This document shows positions 2,497 to 56,321 of a stretch of DNA of 64,000 nucleotides, piece by piece (the stretch's first letter is position 1; the number at the start of each line of letters is the position of its first letter). The notes under the pieces were generated by a model. The model had not been told where the DNA came from. It was given only the letters and a program-made list of their open reading frames with translations, and searched no databases. Position numbers and translations under genes: made by a program. This DNA is from Candidatus Nealsonbacteria bacterium (GTDB taxonomy: Bacteria > Patescibacteriota > Minisyncoccia > Minisyncoccales > UBA6532): NCBI GenBank assembly GCA_016186485.1, contig JACPLN010000002.1:1548-65547 (forward strand), read 5' to 3'.

Positions 2497-3504
2497 CTAA
2501 AGCAGGTTTTGAGAAGCTTTGTATTTTATGCCCAGGTGCAGGTAGGCAAGCTTTGTGGCAAGCCTTCCCCGAGGAGTTCTTTCTATAAATCCAAGCTGCA
2601 TTAAATAGGGTTCGTAAATATCCAATATTGTATCTTGTTCTTGAGAGGCGGCGGCAGCTAAGGCCTGAAGACCAACCGGTCCTCCGCTGAACTTTTCAAT
2701 GATCGCTTCCAAAATTCTTTTATCGCCCTCTTCCAGCCCCTTCTCATCAATTTCAAGAAATTCAAACGCTTTCTTGGCTAGCGCCATGGTGATAATGTTC
2801 CCTCCCTCTACTTGAGCGAAGTCCCTGACTCTTTTTAAGAGGCGGTTTGCCACCCTGGGGGTGTATCGCGATCTCTCGGCGATTAGATTAACTGCTTCTG
2901 GTTCAGGATTTACGCCTAAAAGATTTGCCGATCTTTGCAGGATTTTTTTAATGTCCTCTTTTTCATAAAAGTTAATCTGGAATGATGCCCCGAATCTGCT
3001 TCTTAACGGAGAAGACAAAAGGGCAATTCTGGTTGTGGCCCCGATAAGCGTAAACCTTGGCAGTTTTAACTCCATTGTTCTTGCCATAGGGCCTTTGCCG
3101 ATAACCAGATTTAGTTTAAAGTCTTCCATTGCCGGGTACAAATATTCTTCGCAAACCCTATTCAATCTGTGGCATTCGTCTAAAAAAATGACATCGTTTT
3201 CGGATAGATTCGTCAGAATGGCAGCTAAATCCCCCGCTCTTTCAATTGCCGGCCCCGAGGTTATCTTAATATTGGTTTTGAGTTCTTTGGCCACTAAATA
3301 AGCGAGGCTTGATTTGCCAAGTCCGCTTCCTCCGTAGAATAACAGGTGTTCCGGAGGCTCTTTTCTCTGTTTCGCCGCGTCAATAATGACTTTAAGATTC
3401 TTTTTTATCCTTTCTTGTCCAATATATTCTTCCCATTTTCTGGGCCTGAGAGCCGAATCTAAAGTAACGTCTTCTTGAATTGTTTTTGGGGGTGGGGTTG
3501 ACAT
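2497..3504 (-). CDS. ruvB: Holliday junction branch migration helicase RuvB
   Basis: Walker A GGSGLGKSSLA and Walker B IFLDECHRL, with a RuvB-type C-terminal winged helix. The start is taken at ATG 3504 (MSTPPP). The ORF-track extension to 3573 runs into the inverted-repeat element. Confidence 0.9.
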   Translation of the reverse strand: MSTPPPKTIQEDVTLDSALRPRKWEEYIGQERIKKNLKVIIDAAKQRKEPPEHLLFYGGSGLGKSSLAYLVAKELKTNIKITSGPAIERAGDLAAILTNLSENDVIFLDECHRLNRVCEEYLYPAMEDFKLNLVIGKGPMARTMELKLPRFTLIGATTRIALLSSPLRSRFGASFQINFYEKEDIKKILQRSANLLGVNPEPEAVNLIAERSRYTPRVANRLLKRVRDFAQVEGGNIITMALAKKAFEFLEIDEKGLEEGDKRILEAIIEKFSGGPVGLQALAAAASQEQDTILDIYEPYLMQLGFIERTPRGRLATKLAYLHLGIKYKASQNLL

Positions 3505-3543
3505 TTTAAAAATATCCTGATATAATAGATGGGTTAAAGGAGG

Positions 3544-3667
3544 AACCGGGAGTTGAGGGCCAAGGAATTTCACTTAGCCGGATAGTCTGGCGCGAGCGAG
3601 ACTGCTCCTCGGTGAAGTTCTAAACTTTACGTTCTTACACTAAAGTGTCGGCCCTCAACTCCCGGTT
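3544..3667. repeat. 124-bp element bounded by perfect 18-bp inverted repeats (AACCGGGAGTTGAGGGCC / GGCCCTCAACTCCCGGTT)
   Basis: Left arm 3544-3561 and right arm 3650-3667, read directly. The interior carries sub-hairpins at 3584-3603 and 3637-3648. The element starts 1 nt from the stop codon of the upstream ATPase gene. Confidence 0.8.
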
Positions 3668-3668
3668 T

Positions 3669-4937
3669 CTATTCTCCTGTCACTTTTTCTATTTCTTCTA
3701 TTGTTGTTACGCCTTCTATTACTTTTATAAAACCATCTTGTCTTGCCGTTATCATCCCTTCTTCTATTGCTTCTTTTCTCAAATCGGCGATAGACTGGTT
3801 TGTCAAAATTAATTTTTCTATTTTATCGGTAGCCAAAAGGGCTTCAAATATTCCTATTCTTCCGCGGTATCCAGTATGATTGCAGTAACTACAGCCCTTT
3901 GCCGCGGCTATCCTAAGCGAGGAAGCTATTTTTATATTTTTCACCCCCCTTAATTCTTTTTTTATTTTTTCCAAGTCTTTCGCTGAAATTTTTGTAAAAA
4001 CTGCGCATTTTTTACACACTTTCCTTACCAGTCTTTGGGCAACAGCCATATTAAGGGCGGGGCCGACATTAGACGGTTTTGCTCCCAGGGTAACAAGTCT
4101 TGAAACCGTTCCAGCCGCGTCATTTGTATGCAGGGTTGTAAATACAAGGTGCCCCGTGAGCGCGGCTTGGATTGCGATGTCTGCTGTTTCAGAATCCCTT
4201 ATTTCTCCAACCAATATTACATCGGGGTCCTGCCTGACAATAGCTTTTAATCCCGTTGCAAAATCATAATTCTGGCCCGGATTAACTTGTGTTTGGGAAA
4301 TTCCCGGCAGATGGTATTCAATGGGGTCTTCAATGGTAATAATTTTTATTTCAGGGCGCTGGATTGATTTTAAAAAAGAATAAAGGGTAGTAGTTTTCCC
4401 GGATCCGGTTGGACCGGTAACTATAATCATTCCGTAGGGTTTTTTAACCTCTTTTTTAAAGATATTTAATAATTCTTTTCTCAAGCCCAGTTCCTCTATG
4501 CTTATCAGGCTTTTTGGGTTAAGAATCCTCAAAACTATTGTTTCTCCATATTCTGTAGGGAGGGTTGATGCCCTAATTTCAATCGGAGTTTTATCAAGAA
4601 CAACAGAAAATCTGCCGTCTTGAGGTTTGTCTGAAACATTGATTTTTATTCCCGATAAAAGCTTGAATCTTGAAAGAACCGTTTCATAAATATCGTTTGG
4701 TAAAATGATAAGATCTTCTAAAACCCCATCCAGCCTGATCCTTATTTTTGTTTCTTCTTTCTGGGGTTCTAGGTGCAGGTCGGACGCGTAAAGATTTATT
4801 GCTCCAGCCAAAAGCGCGTTTACAATCTCTGTTACTGGATGCCCGAGGGTTTCATCCAGGACTTTTTTAAACGAGGAAACGCTTGAAATCGTTTTCCCCG
4901 CTAAAATCTCAATGCCGCCGGCGATTTCCTGATTCAT
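3669..4937 (-). CDS. GspE/PilB-family type II/IV secretion ATPase (short form)
   Basis: Walker A GPTGSGKTTT, Walker B/Asp box ILVGEIRD, His box TGHLVFTTLHTN, and the C-terminal tetracysteine CKKC...CSYC typical of PilB/GspE. Confidence 0.85.
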   Translation of the reverse strand: MNQEIAGGIEILAGKTISSVSSFKKVLDETLGHPVTEIVNALLAGAINLYASDLHLEPQKEETKIRIRLDGVLEDLIILPNDIYETVLSRFKLLSGIKINVSDKPQDGRFSVVLDKTPIEIRASTLPTEYGETIVLRILNPKSLISIEELGLRKELLNIFKKEVKKPYGMIIVTGPTGSGKTTTLYSFLKSIQRPEIKIITIEDPIEYHLPGISQTQVNPGQNYDFATGLKAIVRQDPDVILVGEIRDSETADIAIQAALTGHLVFTTLHTNDAAGTVSRLVTLGAKPSNVGPALNMAVAQRLVRKVCKKCAVFTKISAKDLEKIKKELRGVKNIKIASSLRIAAAKGCSYCNHTGYRGRIGIFEALLATDKIEKLILTNQSIADLRKEAIEEGMITARQDGFIKVIEGVTTIEEIEKVTGE

Positions 4938-43955: not shown

Positions 43956-44075
43956 AGGTTATCCATTGCTTTTAGTTGGGTGATGCCTATTGGTTTATCG
44001 CCTCCTAACAAAGCAGTGGGAGGGAAAGGGGAGGGGAAACAAAAACCCCGTACTTAGTGCGAGGTTTTTGTTTTT
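43956..44075 (+). ncRNA. Candidate ~120-nt structured small RNA (unclassified)
   Basis: It lies between the orphan extended -10 and a weak terminator (AACCCCG...CGAGGTT plus TTTTTGTTTTT). It has a 10-bp helix CCATTGCTTT/AAAGCAGTGG (43963-43972 / 44010-44019) enclosing GGTGAT/ATCGCC, then a G-rich tract. No match to any RNA family I can recognise. Confidence 0.3.
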
Positions 44076-44078
44076 GTG

Positions 44079-44154
44079 CCCCTTAGTAGATTTTTGACAA
44101 GGTTTTCTGAAGAAAACCTAATATCGCGAAGCGGGTCAAAAATTCACTACGGGG
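44079..44154. repeat. Long-stem hairpin repeat, copy A (76 nt)
   Basis: Outer 20-nt arms CCCCTTAGTAGATTTTTGAC / GTCAAAAATTCACTACGGGG, inner hairpin AGGTTTTC-TGAA-GAAAACCT, and unpaired AATATCGCGAAGCGG. Confidence 0.85.
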
Positions 44155-44164
44155 TGGGGAGAAA

Positions 44165-44251
44165 ATGTGCAAAATCTGGGCAAAATTTCAGTGGTTTTAC
44201 AAAGATGCTCTTAATTTGACGCATAACTTAAAAAATGCCATAGTTAAATAA
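44165..44251 (+). CDS. Possible 28-aa micro-ORF (MCKIWAKFQWFYKDALNLTHNLKNAIVK)
   Basis: A GGGGAG SD 3-4 nt upstream that abuts the 3' arm of repeat copy A, followed by a 9-bp hairpin. Very speculative. Confidence 0.2.
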   Translation: MCKIWAKFQWFYKDALNLTHNLKNAIVK

Positions 44252-44253
44252 GA

Positions 44254-44296
44254 AAGGGCATCTTAAAGGCGATAAAAAGCCTAGTGATGCCCTTTT
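44254..44296 (+). terminator. Hairpin with a short T-run (possible terminator)
   Basis: A perfect 9-bp stem AAGGGCATC/GATGCCCTT with a 23-nt loop that has its own AGGC/GCCT stem, then TTTTG. Confidence 0.4.
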
Positions 44297-44304
44297 GCGT
44301 TAAA

Positions 44305-44366
44305 CCCCGTAGTAGAAATTGGACTTGCTAACGCAAAATGTAATTTGTCCAATTTTCACTACAGGG
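44305..44366. repeat. Long-stem hairpin repeat, copy B (62 nt, variant with compensated stem)
   Basis: Arms CCCCGTAGTAGAAATTGGAC / GTCCAATTTTCACTACAGGG, with the inner hairpin TTGC-TAAC-GCAA. Confidence 0.8.
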
Positions 44367-44396
44367 TAAAGGTCGAAAAATGAATAAAAAAACAAA

Positions 44397-50377: not shown

Positions 50378-51367
50378 TCAGGCGTTGGTTGCACCAACGC
50401 CTTTTTTTTCTCTTGATATGACCACCTCAAGTATTAATTTTGAAAGCAGGTCTTTTTCTTTTCCGTCAAAAACAAATGCGGCAGCCCCTGTGTGTCCTCC
50501 TCCGCCAAATTTAGCGGCAAGTTCAGCTAGGTCAATATCGTTTTTGGGACATCGCCTCATTGAACAGCGCCATTTGCCCTCATTGTCTTCCGTTATCAGG
50601 GCGAAAACCTCTAAATCTTCCGCATTCTTTATTAGGCCCATTATTTTTCCAAGATCTCTTTGCTGAGCGTTTAACTTTTCGAACTCTTTCCGAGAGAACG
50701 TTAGGTAGGCAAGATTAGAAAAAATCACTAATTTCTGGTAAGCGTATTTGAGAACGCGGATTTGGCGTTTGTCTATTCTTACTCCCGAGGCATAGATCTT
50801 TATTTTCTCTATGTCAGCCCCAAGAGCCAAGAGTTCGCCTGCAATGCTGAATCCCTCCGGATTTATCAGTGCGTTTGTAAATCCTCCAGTGTCTGTATAT
50901 AGGCCCACCATCAAGTAGGTTGCAACTTCGCGATCAACTTTGTAGCCAGCAGCCTGGAAAAACCTAAGCAGCAAAGCCGTAGTAGAGCTCTTTTTTTCGT
51001 CAACAATAGAAACCCCGGGGTAATTTCCAACGGTGCTTTGACGGTGATGGTCAAATCCTAACATTTTTTTAACGTACGCTTTCGGCAATTTGGTGCGTTC
51101 TGCGTTTCCGTAATCAAAAATAACCGTTAAATCAGGGGCGTCTTGGGGCAACTCATTGAAGGACGTTTCTACTTTAGGAAATATCCCAAAGATTGCATTT
51201 TCCTCCGGTATCTTATCAGGGGAAAATAAAGAAACGTTTTTGCCCTTATCTTTAAGAAACCTTAAAAAAGCCCAAACCGATCCTACCGAATCTCCGTCTG
51301 GTCCCTCGGGAATTGCCAGCAACACGTTATTTGCCTCTTCAATCATTTGGAGTTCTGTTTCCCACAA
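50378..51367 (-). CDS. nrnA: DHH-family phosphoesterase (NrnA-like oligoribonuclease/pAp phosphatase)
   Basis: Intact motifs DGDSVGS, FDYGN, GFDHHRQS, DTGGF and GGGGHTGAAAF. Confidence 0.85.
   Translation of the reverse strand: MWETELQMIEEANNVLLAIPEGPDGDSVGSVWAFLRFLKDKGKNVSLFSPDKIPEENAIFGIFPKVETSFNELPQDAPDLTVIFDYGNAERTKLPKAYVKKMLGFDHHRQSTVGNYPGVSIVDEKKSSTTALLLRFFQAAGYKVDREVATYLMVGLYTDTGGFTNALINPEGFSIAGELLALGADIEKIKIYASGVRIDKRQIRVLKYAYQKLVIFSNLAYLTFSRKEFEKLNAQQRDLGKIMGLIKNAEDLEVFALITEDNEGKWRCSMRRCPKNDIDLAELAAKFGGGGHTGAAAFVFDGKEKDLLSKLILEVVISREKKGVGATNA
50381..50409 (+). terminator. Rho-independent terminator
   Basis: A perfect 9-bp stem GGCGTTGGT/ACCAACGCC with loop TGC, then TTTTTTTT. It lies inside the 3' end of the convergent nrnA-like gene. 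Confidence 0.7.
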
Positions 51368-51416
51368 CCTTTTCCACTAACAATAAGATTATACACCAAA
51401 CATTAATTTATGTCAA

Positions 51417-51493
51417 CCCCGTAGTTAATTTTTGACAAGATTTTCTTTCAGAAAACCTAATATCGCGAAGCGAGTCAAAAATTCACTACGGGG
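51417..51493. repeat. Long-stem hairpin repeat, copy C (77 nt)
   Basis: CCCCGTAGTTAATTTTTGAC...GTCAAAAATTCACTACGGGG. It differs from copy A at roughly eight positions, including one indel. Confidence 0.85.
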
Positions 51494-51775
51494 TCAAATA
51501 AAACAGCAGTTTAGTATATTACCAAACTGCTTTGAGAAAAATGTGCTATGAAAGGAAGTAGCGGTGGGGGCTTTTGGTGCGTATCCAACACGGGCCACGA
51601 CGCCTGATGTGTTAGATTTTTCGCGAAGAGGTCGTACTCTTATCGGGTTTTATCCCCACCTTTTCAGCCCGACAATCTTATTATACCTTTAGCCAAAAAA
51701 CTGTGTCAAGTATTTTGGGCCCTATTTTTCTGCTTTTATCTCGACATAAAGACTATCAGGGCATAAAATAAAGTA

Positions 51776-55895: not shown

Positions 55896-55923
55896 ATTTG
55901 TTTTAACCGAGCTTGTTTGGGTG

Positions 55924-56321
55924 TGGAGGCGAGGGGATTTGAACCCCTGTCCAAAAATTCTAACAAAATATATCTACAAGCTTATTCTGTTTTTAATTCT
56001 CGGAATGCCGGATATAAAACAGATAAAATTCCAGCATTCCCAGTCTCTTATTTTTGAGGAATTACCGAGACTTGTAAGTTCTCTATCTCGATTTATGGCA
56101 CCCAGCTCTACTATCGAGATTCATAGAGCAAGATGGCTTACGCTATTTGGTAAGCAGGAACTAAACCGCCTCCGCCACCACCGCCAAAGGCAGCTGCGAA
56201 AACTGATTTAGCTTTTGAAAATAAGTTGGCACTTATTTTGTTTATAGGCAGTTTTACGAGATGACTATAATTCTCGGCTTGCATATTTTAGTACGATATT
56301 TCTGTCGAACATTTCGCCCCC
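55924..56321 (-). ncRNA. ssrA: tmRNA (SsrA), one-piece
   Basis: The 5' GGGGGCG pairs with the 3' CGCCTCC, including a G3:U pair. The T arm is GGACAGGGGTTCAAATCCCCT, with discriminator A; CCA is not encoded. PK1-like GCCGAGAA...CTCGTAAAA is followed by a tag ORF starting at GCC. Confidence 0.85.

Follow-up and report, generated by a model that had tools for sequence, protein, structure and literature searches.

Hairpin repeats in a Nealsonbacteria genome are probably miniature copies of a very small GIY-YIG nuclease-encoding transposable family of Patescibacteria

A 64,000-nucleotide stretch of a Candidatus Nealsonbacteria bacterium genome (assembly GCA_016186485.1, contig JACPLN010000002.1, positions 1,548 to 65,547; hereafter the window) carries three short hairpin elements, designated copies A, B and C. 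These hairpins are probably miniature, non-coding copies, resembling miniature inverted-repeat transposable elements (MITEs), of a very small transposable family distributed across Patescibacteria. The full form of this family is about 310 bp long and encodes an 85-residue GIY-YIG nuclease only. The family has a characteristic design of its ends, duplicates its targets, moves, has its ends in common with the nuclease gene, encodes a nuclease with recognisable homologs, and shows a distinct spectrum of targets.

Copies A and B had been reported in a first-pass annotation made from the sequence alone, and their coordinates and sequences were verified on the window sequence (Table 1). The arms of copy A (CCCCTTAGTAGATTTTTGAC and GTCAAAAATTCACTACGGGG) form a 20-bp terminal stem in which G5 is mutated to T, and two mini-hairpins lie in its interior: the inner hairpin AGGTTTTC-TGAA-GAAAACCT and, in the tail, a CGC-GAA-GCG mini-hairpin, located in a segment that had been described as unpaired. 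Between A and B, stem positions 13, 14 and 17 differ on both arms with pairing preserved, as the three compensated inner-stem changes of the annotation had indicated. The predicted folds of all three copies consist of a long outer stem enclosing two small hairpins. Folded as RNA, they reach -24 to -35 kcal/mol (z -5.8 to -8.6), and folded as DNA they have z scores of -5.4 to -10.2; none of 200 shuffled sequences folded as well in either case. A repeat finder run on the window also recovered the 20-21-nt arms of the hairpin copies.

Copy B is flanked by an exact 4-bp target-site duplication TAAA (44301-44304 and 44367-44370) and copy C by TCAA (51413-51416 and 51494-51497). Copy A is flanked by an imperfect repeat, TGTG (44075-44078) and TGGG (44155-44158), matching at three of four bases. 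The only open reading frame (ORF) that overlaps the copies, which are 62-77 nt long, spans 44076-44219 and encodes 47 amino acids without a Pfam match. Neither a transposase nor a GIY-YIG nuclease gene was found in the 64-kb window, and since the nuclease gene is missing from it, the window copies are non-autonomous, MITE-like derivatives. The remark of the annotation that no transposase is present thus holds for the window, but in other genomes a nuclease gene lies between the ends seen here. A half-copy had also been proposed just upstream of copy A. A 19-nt degenerate palindrome does exist there (44046-44064) and resembles the 24-37-nt ends-only minis of other genomes, but it lies within a terminator-like hairpin and is assigned to the family only tentatively.

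Table 1. Hairpin elements of the window and the promoter next to copy C.
Feature	Position	Strand	Remarks
Copy A, 76-nt non-autonomous hairpin element	44079..44154	+	matches family search pattern
Copy B, 62-nt hairpin element; 12-nt termini as in A	44305..44366	+	
Copy C, 77-nt element, ~90% identity to A	51417..51493	+	found by searching the window for the termini
Possible degenerate ends-only mini copy	44046..44064	+	CCCCGTACT-T-AGTGCGAGG, 7/9 Watson-Crick pairs; membership uncertain
Sigma-70-type promoter, TTGACA-17 nt-TATAAT, 12/12 matches	51388..51416	-	drives DHH-family gene 50378-51367 (-)

Two further features lie next to the window copies. Copies A and B bracket a unit at 44216-44295 (+) comprising a promoter-like site, TTGACG-17-CATAGT with an upstream TG, and, at most 10 nt after it, a 10-bp hairpin (AAAGGGCATC ... 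GATGCCCTTT, followed by TTG). Just upstream of copy C, a perfect promoter on the minus strand (TTGACA-18-TATAAT, 51709-51680) is followed by a terminator-like hairpin with a T-run (51531-51505). The approximately 145 nt between them contain no ORF, have no Rfam match and fold unexceptionally (z -1.6), and 51505-51709 (-) is a candidate small RNA.

A scan of one genome per prokaryotic species for the family pattern CCCCKTAGT-N35-65-TTCACTACRGGG gave 126 copies, located on at least 119 genome stretches that come almost entirely from Patescibacteria. The same pattern had no match in 2.9 million viral contigs. Hosts among the matches listed belong to many classes and include Nomura-, Nealson-, Yanofsky-, Wolfe- and Zambryskibacteria, Paceibacterota and Saccharibacteria. 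About three matches outside Patescibacteria (L031 and L039, which have poor stems) are probably due to chance. L037, labelled Bdellovibrionales, looks like a real copy on a contig that is possibly mis-binned.

The 126 copies were anchored at their ends and pairing was counted at each position; positions 1-9 are set by the search pattern and are therefore uninformative. Position 10 is A.C in 120 copies, position 11 is G.T in 116, and position 12 is A-T. Positions 13-20 form Watson-Crick pairs in 85-95% of the copies against 33-56% expected from column composition, with several pair types at each position (for example, GC 54, CG 30, TA 27 and AT 4 at position 17), and pairing collapses past the stem, to 48% at position 21 and 16% at position 22. 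In the 91 distinct arm pairs, both-side changes occupied 230 cells versus 81 +/- 6 in shuffles. The covariation score was 0.31 compared with 0.075 after shuffling, and did not exceed 0.08 when partners were slid by 1-3 columns. Because positions 13-20 vary but stay paired, the compensatory changes are general to the family. Selection on pairing is therefore strongly supported, in line with the selection on structure that the first-pass annotation had deduced from A and B.

The ends share a common design. A conserved 9-bp terminal stem (CCCCGTAGT ... ACTACGGGG, or variants that co-vary, such as CCAGGTAGT) is followed at stem positions 10-11 by a conserved tandem non-Watson-Crick step, AG on one arm and GA on the other. 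About 9 bp follow at positions 12-20, and within them the sequence of 13-20 varies freely with pairing kept. The stem is exactly 20 bp long. The AG/GA asymmetry is found in 96 of about 106 short copies and in 44 of 48 gene-sized copies, and it is kept in sub-families with other, covarying tips (CCAGGTAGT, CCCAGTAGT, TCCCGTAGT and CCCCGTAGA). The annotation had held this mismatch to be kept in all copies; it is general in the family, but copy C has TA where the family has AG. The interior falls into size classes, from near nothing (24-37-nt minis) through two small hairpins (60-85 nt) and 125-150 nt of other sequence to a single gene for a GIY-YIG nuclease of 85-100 aa in elements of about 290-350 bp. 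Elements of the 125-150-nt class (L027:1571-1702 and L027:2663-2795; also at L064, L075, L105, L140, L144, L154, L178 and L195) have the same ends and duplications and a distinct, non-coding interior without trace of the nuclease ORF. A single 688-nt element with variant ends (L089:98-785) contains an 84-aa ORF without a Pfam match. Apart from it, the larger same-ended elements in the fetched loci were only those of 125-150 nt, the approximately 310-nt GIY-YIG elements, and nested or tandem composites.

The elements move. Target-site duplications had not been seen in the first-pass annotation, which had proposed looking for them in the flanks; nor had it seen the promoter targeting or the nuclease tied to the family. 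Direct repeats that match exactly over 4 bp or longer flank 90 of the 126 copies (72 of 4 bp and 18 of 5 bp), with more than 30 distinct repeat sequences among them, and none of the 126 reached 4 bp in a control in which the right flank was shifted by 10 nt. Reconstructed empty sites were compared with all fetched loci, and an unoccupied site was found in a relative (L112:1330-1406 versus L116). Another copy (L066:1766-1831) is nested within the inner loop of a further copy with a CCCCG duplication, the uninterrupted homologue being present at L102, and tandem re-insertions at the regenerated TATG were observed. Copies A and C are near-identical at unrelated sites with different flanks. Genes that the window has in common with two Nealsonbacteria contigs show 65-73% nucleotide identity. 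Exact-protein look-ups for strain variants without copies A-C returned identical contigs or nothing, and the evidence from empty sites therefore comes from other genomes.

The logo of the reconstructed targets is loosely palindromic (g-YNNR-c), with T (74%) or C (25%) at position 0, A (65%) or G (29%) at position 3, G (52%) at position -1 and C (47%) at position +4. This logo bears on the possibility that the hairpins spread by replication template switching (copy-choice) at 4-nt microhomologies, with the apparent duplication representing microhomology between donor and target. The dominance of a few tetranucleotides in the flanks (TTGA/TCAA in 35 of 90; TATG in 21 of 31 gene-bearing copies) would fit such a process, as would the tendency of hairpins to promote replication slippage. 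However, close copies have different flanks, such as TGTG/TGGG and TCAA for A and C or TTGA, TCAA, TGCTA, TGGA and CTTG within the ATTTTGGCA subfamily, and the palindromic logo is as expected of a symmetric cutter. We consider copy-choice spread to be very improbable.

The insertions are concentrated at transcription and translation signals of the host. In 45 of the 72 four-base duplications, the duplicated bases belong to a TTGACA box that is followed by TATAAT, being its TTGA or CTTG or the complement of either, and elements lie in both directions at those promoters (24 versus 21). A stringent promoter, with at least 5/6 matches in the -35 box, a spacer of 16-18 and at least 4/6 matches in the -10 box, was detected at 36 of 99 sites (~36%) compared with 28 of 2400 random positions, and the -35 hexamer begins at duplication position 0 or +1 in 35 of these 36. 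Copy C illustrates this arrangement, as it is inserted in the TTGA (the first four bases) of the -35 hexamer of the promoter in Table 1 and the duplication leaves that hexamer intact. Gene-bearing copies are located on the ATG of a downstream gene that is read in the same direction as the element, and in many cases a -10 box immediately precedes this site; their duplications are mostly TATG, ATGA, TGAA or TGGA, overlapping that ATG. Since the duplication restores the -35 hexamer in short copies or the start codon in gene-bearing copies, insertions should be nearly harmless. A G-rich run often lies just upstream of the target and resembles the element's own GGGG tip, which would fit one active site making both cuts.

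Two observations on host genes accompany these insertion sites. Within L122-L201 (e.g. L123, L128, L173 and L187), gene-bearing elements lie on start codons only 6-9 nt past the -10 box, which suggests that the host genes concerned are leaderless. GIY-YIG elements recurrently occupy the start of secA in different lineages (L083:7500-7972, L130, L143 and L197), which may reflect either an ancient, inherited insertion or a hot spot; the secA of L041 carries no element.

The gene-bearing form was identified at locus L083, where ends of the family type surround one 85-aa ORF with a GIY-YIG domain (L083:7665-7969, 305 nt; PF01541, E 8.6e-18). A second, decayed case with variant ends and a TAAA duplication occurs at L036. 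The nuclease has 612 close relatives, which share 70-88% identity across lineages and are 85-100 aa long, and all the named ones belong to Patescibacteria or unclassified metagenome-assembled genomes. Of the catalytic-type residues, Y5, Y16, H30, N31 and E62 do not vary and R26 hardly does. A metagenome scan gave at least 593 loci encoding the nuclease, of which 80 were fetched. Ends of the family design lie directly around the ORF in about 70 of these 80, and in 61 of those (non-redundant) an automated end-finder detected a strong inverted repeat, delimiting elements of 290-350 bp. The first-pass annotation had named constant location at the ends of insertion sequences as an outcome that would speak against its structural reading. 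The same ends do bound a gene-bearing element, which partly corresponds to that outcome and explains the family rather than dismissing it.

Some gene calls begin with MPRSETSKAI, which is the translated element end. In the L083, P0008 and P0013 sub-families, this translated end (MPRSETSKAI...) joins the nuclease ORF in frame to the duplicated host ATG, as if the nuclease borrowed the start of the host gene.

A search against PDB sequences with the nuclease retrieved UPF0213 (1zg2, E 2.4e-6; 1ywl) and SLX1. The AlphaFold model (pLDDT 89.5) likewise had UPF0213 and Slx1 (for Slx1, probability 1.0 and TM 0.6-0.68) as its best folds, ahead of I-TevI. UPF0213 (YazA/YhbQ) and SLX1 are thus its nearest solved folds and sequences, and SLX1 cuts branched and stem-loop DNA; however, B. 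subtilis YazA is encoded by an ordinary operon gene without flanking repeats, and SLX1 has extra domains plus a partner, SLX4. The only match in the plasmid database was to B. subtilis yazA, with 38% identity. In hhalign comparison with bona fide Ssn proteins, the nuclease aligned with 98.7% probability (E 1.6e-16, 41% identity over 73 columns), diverging in its C-terminal third. The proteins used in this comparison were confirmed as Ssn-type by NTS-like repeats around their genes, such as TGTCATTCCCGCGCAAGCGGGAATCCAG in L205 and L206. The nuclease thus appears clearly homologous at the sequence level to the Ssn family of nucleases specific for single-stranded DNA (ssDNA) hairpins, and it is equally close to UPF0213.

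The L205 and L206 loci (Melioribacteraceae, GCA_041538185.1) carry two identical Ssn-type GIY-YIG genes 6 kb apart, each within an array in which two types of NTS-like hairpin (TGTCATTCCCGCGCAAGCGGGAATCCAG and TGTCATACCCGCGAAAGCGGGTATCCAT) alternate, 5-9 hairpins in all. Despite the distant phylum of the host, the hairpins are near-identical to the Neisseria NTS consensus.

Ssn proteins, which are about 94 aa long and consist of one GIY-YIG nuclease domain, cut only ssDNA beside a cognate hairpin repeat, NTS/SRM, which flanks the ssn gene and occurs hundreds of times in some genomes (PMC11893778). Their layout, similar to that of an insertion sequence, was noted by Chenal et al. (Nat Commun 2025; PMC11893778), who reported no duplications. 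The present family resembles this system in its protein, which is homologous, has a single GIY-YIG domain and a length of about 85-95 aa, and shares the spacing of the catalytic residues, and in a gene framed by hairpin repeats that also occur in number elsewhere in the genome, mostly between genes. It differs in several respects. The repeat is unrelated, the SRM consensus (HGTCWY..YYVSBRH..WNVSBRG..RNCYNB) matching none of the 126 copies and matching the window once, unrelated to the copies, against 0.3 expected. The two ends here pair with each other, so that the gene or other cargo lies in the loop of one large split hairpin, whereas the ssn gene lies between separate 28-nt hairpins. The 4-bp duplications, the empty and nested sites and the targeting of -35 boxes and ATG codons are found here, and the word "duplication" is absent from the main text of PMC11893778. 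Finally, the C-terminal third of the protein is different, and the hosts are Patescibacteria, which the same main text does not mention.

This relationship raises the alternative that the hairpins are recognition sites serving the host, as NTS in Neisseria, which would mark DNA so that incoming or exposed ssDNA is cut by the nuclease, and would modulate natural transformation or recombination, with mobility being secondary or past. The homology of the nuclease to Ssn, the published Ssn/NTS biology (PMC11893778), the high conservation of the nuclease across deep lineages and the numerous intergenic repeats are consistent with this. However, the signs of insertion, namely duplications, nesting and the near-identity of A and C at unrelated sites, speak against it, and the elements do not match the SRM motif. 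We consider it rather unlikely, although as a statement on function it is compatible with a transposable family: by analogy with Ssn and NTS, mobility may go together with a role in natural transformation in which hairpin-bearing ssDNA is cut.

The nature of the folded molecule also bears on the explanation. Among the interior loops, C-GAA-G was observed 21 times against 0.2 expected and C-AAA-G 14 times against 0.23, and no GNRA tetraloops were present. The oligonucleotide d(GCGAAGC) is a classic, extremely stable DNA mini-hairpin with a C-GAA-G loop. Copies lie upstream of promoters in either orientation. Because of the triloops, the location outside transcripts, the two orientations and the activity of Ssn on ssDNA only, folding of ssDNA or of extruded DNA is favoured over folding of RNA. 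A structured non-coding or cis-regulatory RNA (a small RNA, terminator, insulator or messenger RNA stabiliser), with the covariation reflecting RNA folding, is the least probable of the explanations that we weighed. The strong predicted folds and the strong covariation of the stem would suit an RNA, and the copies occupy the interval from a terminator to the following promoter, a place in which a hairpin could stop read-through. In contrast, Rfam searches, at gathering thresholds for the whole window and as E-value scans of both loci, gave only chance miRNA-like matches far below threshold, and no T-run follows the stem. Copies stand immediately upstream of -35 boxes in both orientations, many of them outside the transcript of the promoter, and an RNA would leave the duplications and the gene-bearing parent unexplained. 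The triloops are of DNA type and not GNRA or UUCG, and the related Ssn enzyme does not bind RNA (PMC11893778). The annotation had left open an RNA, a protein-bound cruciform or the terminal inverted repeat of a MITE; the last of these and a DNA hairpin recognised by a protein fit the data, and the RNA is disfavoured.

Several known types of element were tried and rejected. No terminator was called on A, B or C, and their flanks (tgggga, taaagg and tcaaat) have no T-run, so that the annotation was right to set intrinsic terminators aside; it was equally right about CRISPR, as neither the sequence nor the scans showed a periodic repeat-spacer array. Matches to transfer RNA and transfer-messenger RNA (tmRNA) in the window are unrelated to the copies. 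Integron attC sites resemble these hairpins in their imperfect fold with conserved ends, covarying stem and conserved unpaired bases, and in recombining as folded ssDNA. They have RYYYAAC/GTTRRRY cores, however, recombine at attI through a tyrosine integrase and produce no duplication, none of which applies here: the ends are CCCCGTAGT/ACTACGGGG, not RYYYAAC ... GTTRRRY, and no integrase adjoins the copies among the Pfam-scanned window genes. The REP/BIME-RAYT (Y1 HUH) and IS200/IS605 systems also have hairpins read as folded ssDNA by a small nuclease and a gene flanked by repeats, and REP shares a conserved GTAG tetranucleotide, which occupies positions 5-8 here. They differ in using an HUH/Y1 enzyme and in having neither target duplication nor terminal inverted repeats. 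Membership in REP/RAYT was rejected since the framed gene encodes a GIY-YIG protein, a 4-bp duplication is present and the ends are mutually complementary.

The closest formal resemblance is to MITEs. Correia/NEMIS of Neisseria, RUP, ERIC and Nezha are likewise short (less than about 500 bp), non-coding and multi-copy, have terminal inverted repeats and a duplication, fold into hairpins, and lie between genes, where they sometimes affect promoters. The present copies are short and non-coding, have inverted repeats of 20 bp complementary save at positions 10-11, and show a duplication of fixed length and empty sites; their same-ended partner encodes a GIY-YIG nuclease only, whose role as a transposase is putative. 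Known MITEs derive from insertion sequences with a DDE transposase and have a conserved inverted-repeat sequence, whereas here the parent encodes GIY-YIG only, and the inverted repeat keeps a tandem mismatch while half of it varies freely in sequence yet stays paired.

Alternatively, the hairpins could be ordinary MITEs of a conventional insertion sequence, in which a DDE-type (or other) transposase encoded elsewhere acts on the 12-bp ends with a 4-bp staggered cut and the GIY-YIG gene is a passenger or homing-type hitch-hiker. The combination of terminal inverted repeats and a 4-bp duplication classically marks DDE transposition, and such an origin would also accommodate the lack of known strand transfer by GIY-YIG enzymes and of a nuclease gene in the window. 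Against it, about 1 Mb of fetched Patescibacteria sequence holds no transposase between these ends, about 70 of 80 genes of the nuclease clade are framed by them, with protein and ends conserved together, and the free-sequence pairing at positions 13-20, even within one genome, is unlike sequence-specific binding of inverted repeats in double-stranded DNA. We regard this origin as improbable.

We infer instead that the GIY-YIG nuclease drives transposition. Acting on DNA that is single-stranded or extruded, the nuclease would recognise the folded end-to-end stem by the tandem mismatch and the conserved tip; the inner stem would be needed merely as a helix, and the loop would accept from 0 to more than 250 nt of cargo. 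It would cut the junctions between element and flank and the gYNNRc targets with a 4-nt stagger, thereby freeing and inserting the element, and would act in trans on copies without the gene as well. Host enzymes would then fill and seal the 4-nt stagger, completing the insertion.

Some points weigh against this mechanism and the transposable family built on it. To our knowledge, GIY-YIG enzymes have no strand-transfer activity. The link between nuclease and mobility comes from sequence, and the window itself holds no nuclease gene. The argument from the triloops, which favours ssDNA, draws on the known stability of d(GCGAAGC). The bias towards promoters may largely reflect selection, that is, survival of harmless insertions, rather than targeting, and an unseen transposase located beyond the 8-kb loci is a possible source of activity in trans. 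The published Ssn motif is absent from the elements and the ssn gene is not placed inside a hairpin, as described above, and SsnA is reported to cut once only, upstream of its hairpin.

A probable and a known type of RNA gene lie elsewhere in the window. A perfect TTGACA-17-TATAAT promoter at 3499-3527 (+) is followed by a very strong 130-nt fold at 3540-3670 with a 21-bp closing stem and a three-way junction (-73 kcal/mol as RNA, z -8.8), for which Rfam gave nothing beyond noise-level matches. The fold stands outside the hairpin family, having neither the GTAG core nor the mismatch, and probably marks an unannotated gene for a structured RNA. The tmRNA gene lies at 55921-56321 (-) (Rfam 146 bits), and its tag peptide as called by ARAGORN is unusually long, with a glycine run (ANLFSKAKSVFAAAFGGGGGGGLVPAYQIA).

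The hairpins of the window are thus real elements and not palindromes arising by chance. Their general kind, MITE-like hairpin repeats associated with a GIY-YIG nuclease of one domain, is already known. What is new here is the cognate hairpin, the architecture of true terminal inverted repeats, the clear target duplications, the precise insertion at promoters and start codons, and the host clade. In the searchable full-text literature we found no description of these elements, nor of bacterial GIY-YIG elements with terminal inverted repeats and target-site duplications, the nearest being the Ssn paper. We tentatively propose, as a possibility that falls somewhat short of likely, that the family represents a class of prokaryotic transposon not recognised before, in which an Ssn-type GIY-YIG single-strand nuclease takes the place of a DDE, HUH, serine or tyrosine transposase as the mobilising enzyme. 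Mobilisation by the nuclease would constitute a fifth catalytic solution to prokaryotic transposition. At about 310 bp, the full form would be the smallest autonomous transposable element known and would set a new lower limit of size. Its ends would act as one folded hairpin, with a conserved tip, a tandem mismatch and a free-sequence stem, combined with a 4-bp duplication.

The findings may also be of practical use. Insertions at -35 boxes and ATG codons map sigma-70-type promoters, and genes that start a few bases past the -10 box, in uncultivated bacteria, and the elements cause artefacts of gene calling, such as ORFs beginning with MPRSETSKAI. Ssn enzymes are in development as ssDNA tools, and this clade offers a new and well-defined pair of enzyme and hairpin whose loop accepts more than 250 nt of cargo.

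If this proposal is correct, the elements would be adapted to -35 hexamers and start codons, with the signals of the host restored and, in the gene-bearing form, borrowed. The Ssn/NTS repeats of Neisseria, Wolbachia and Rickettsia would then be relatives of an active transposon family, which would explain the multiplication of Ssn-type hairpin repeats, a question left open by the 2025 Ssn paper. The family provides the genomes of Patescibacteria, usually called streamlined and poor in mobile DNA, with a pervasive mobile component.

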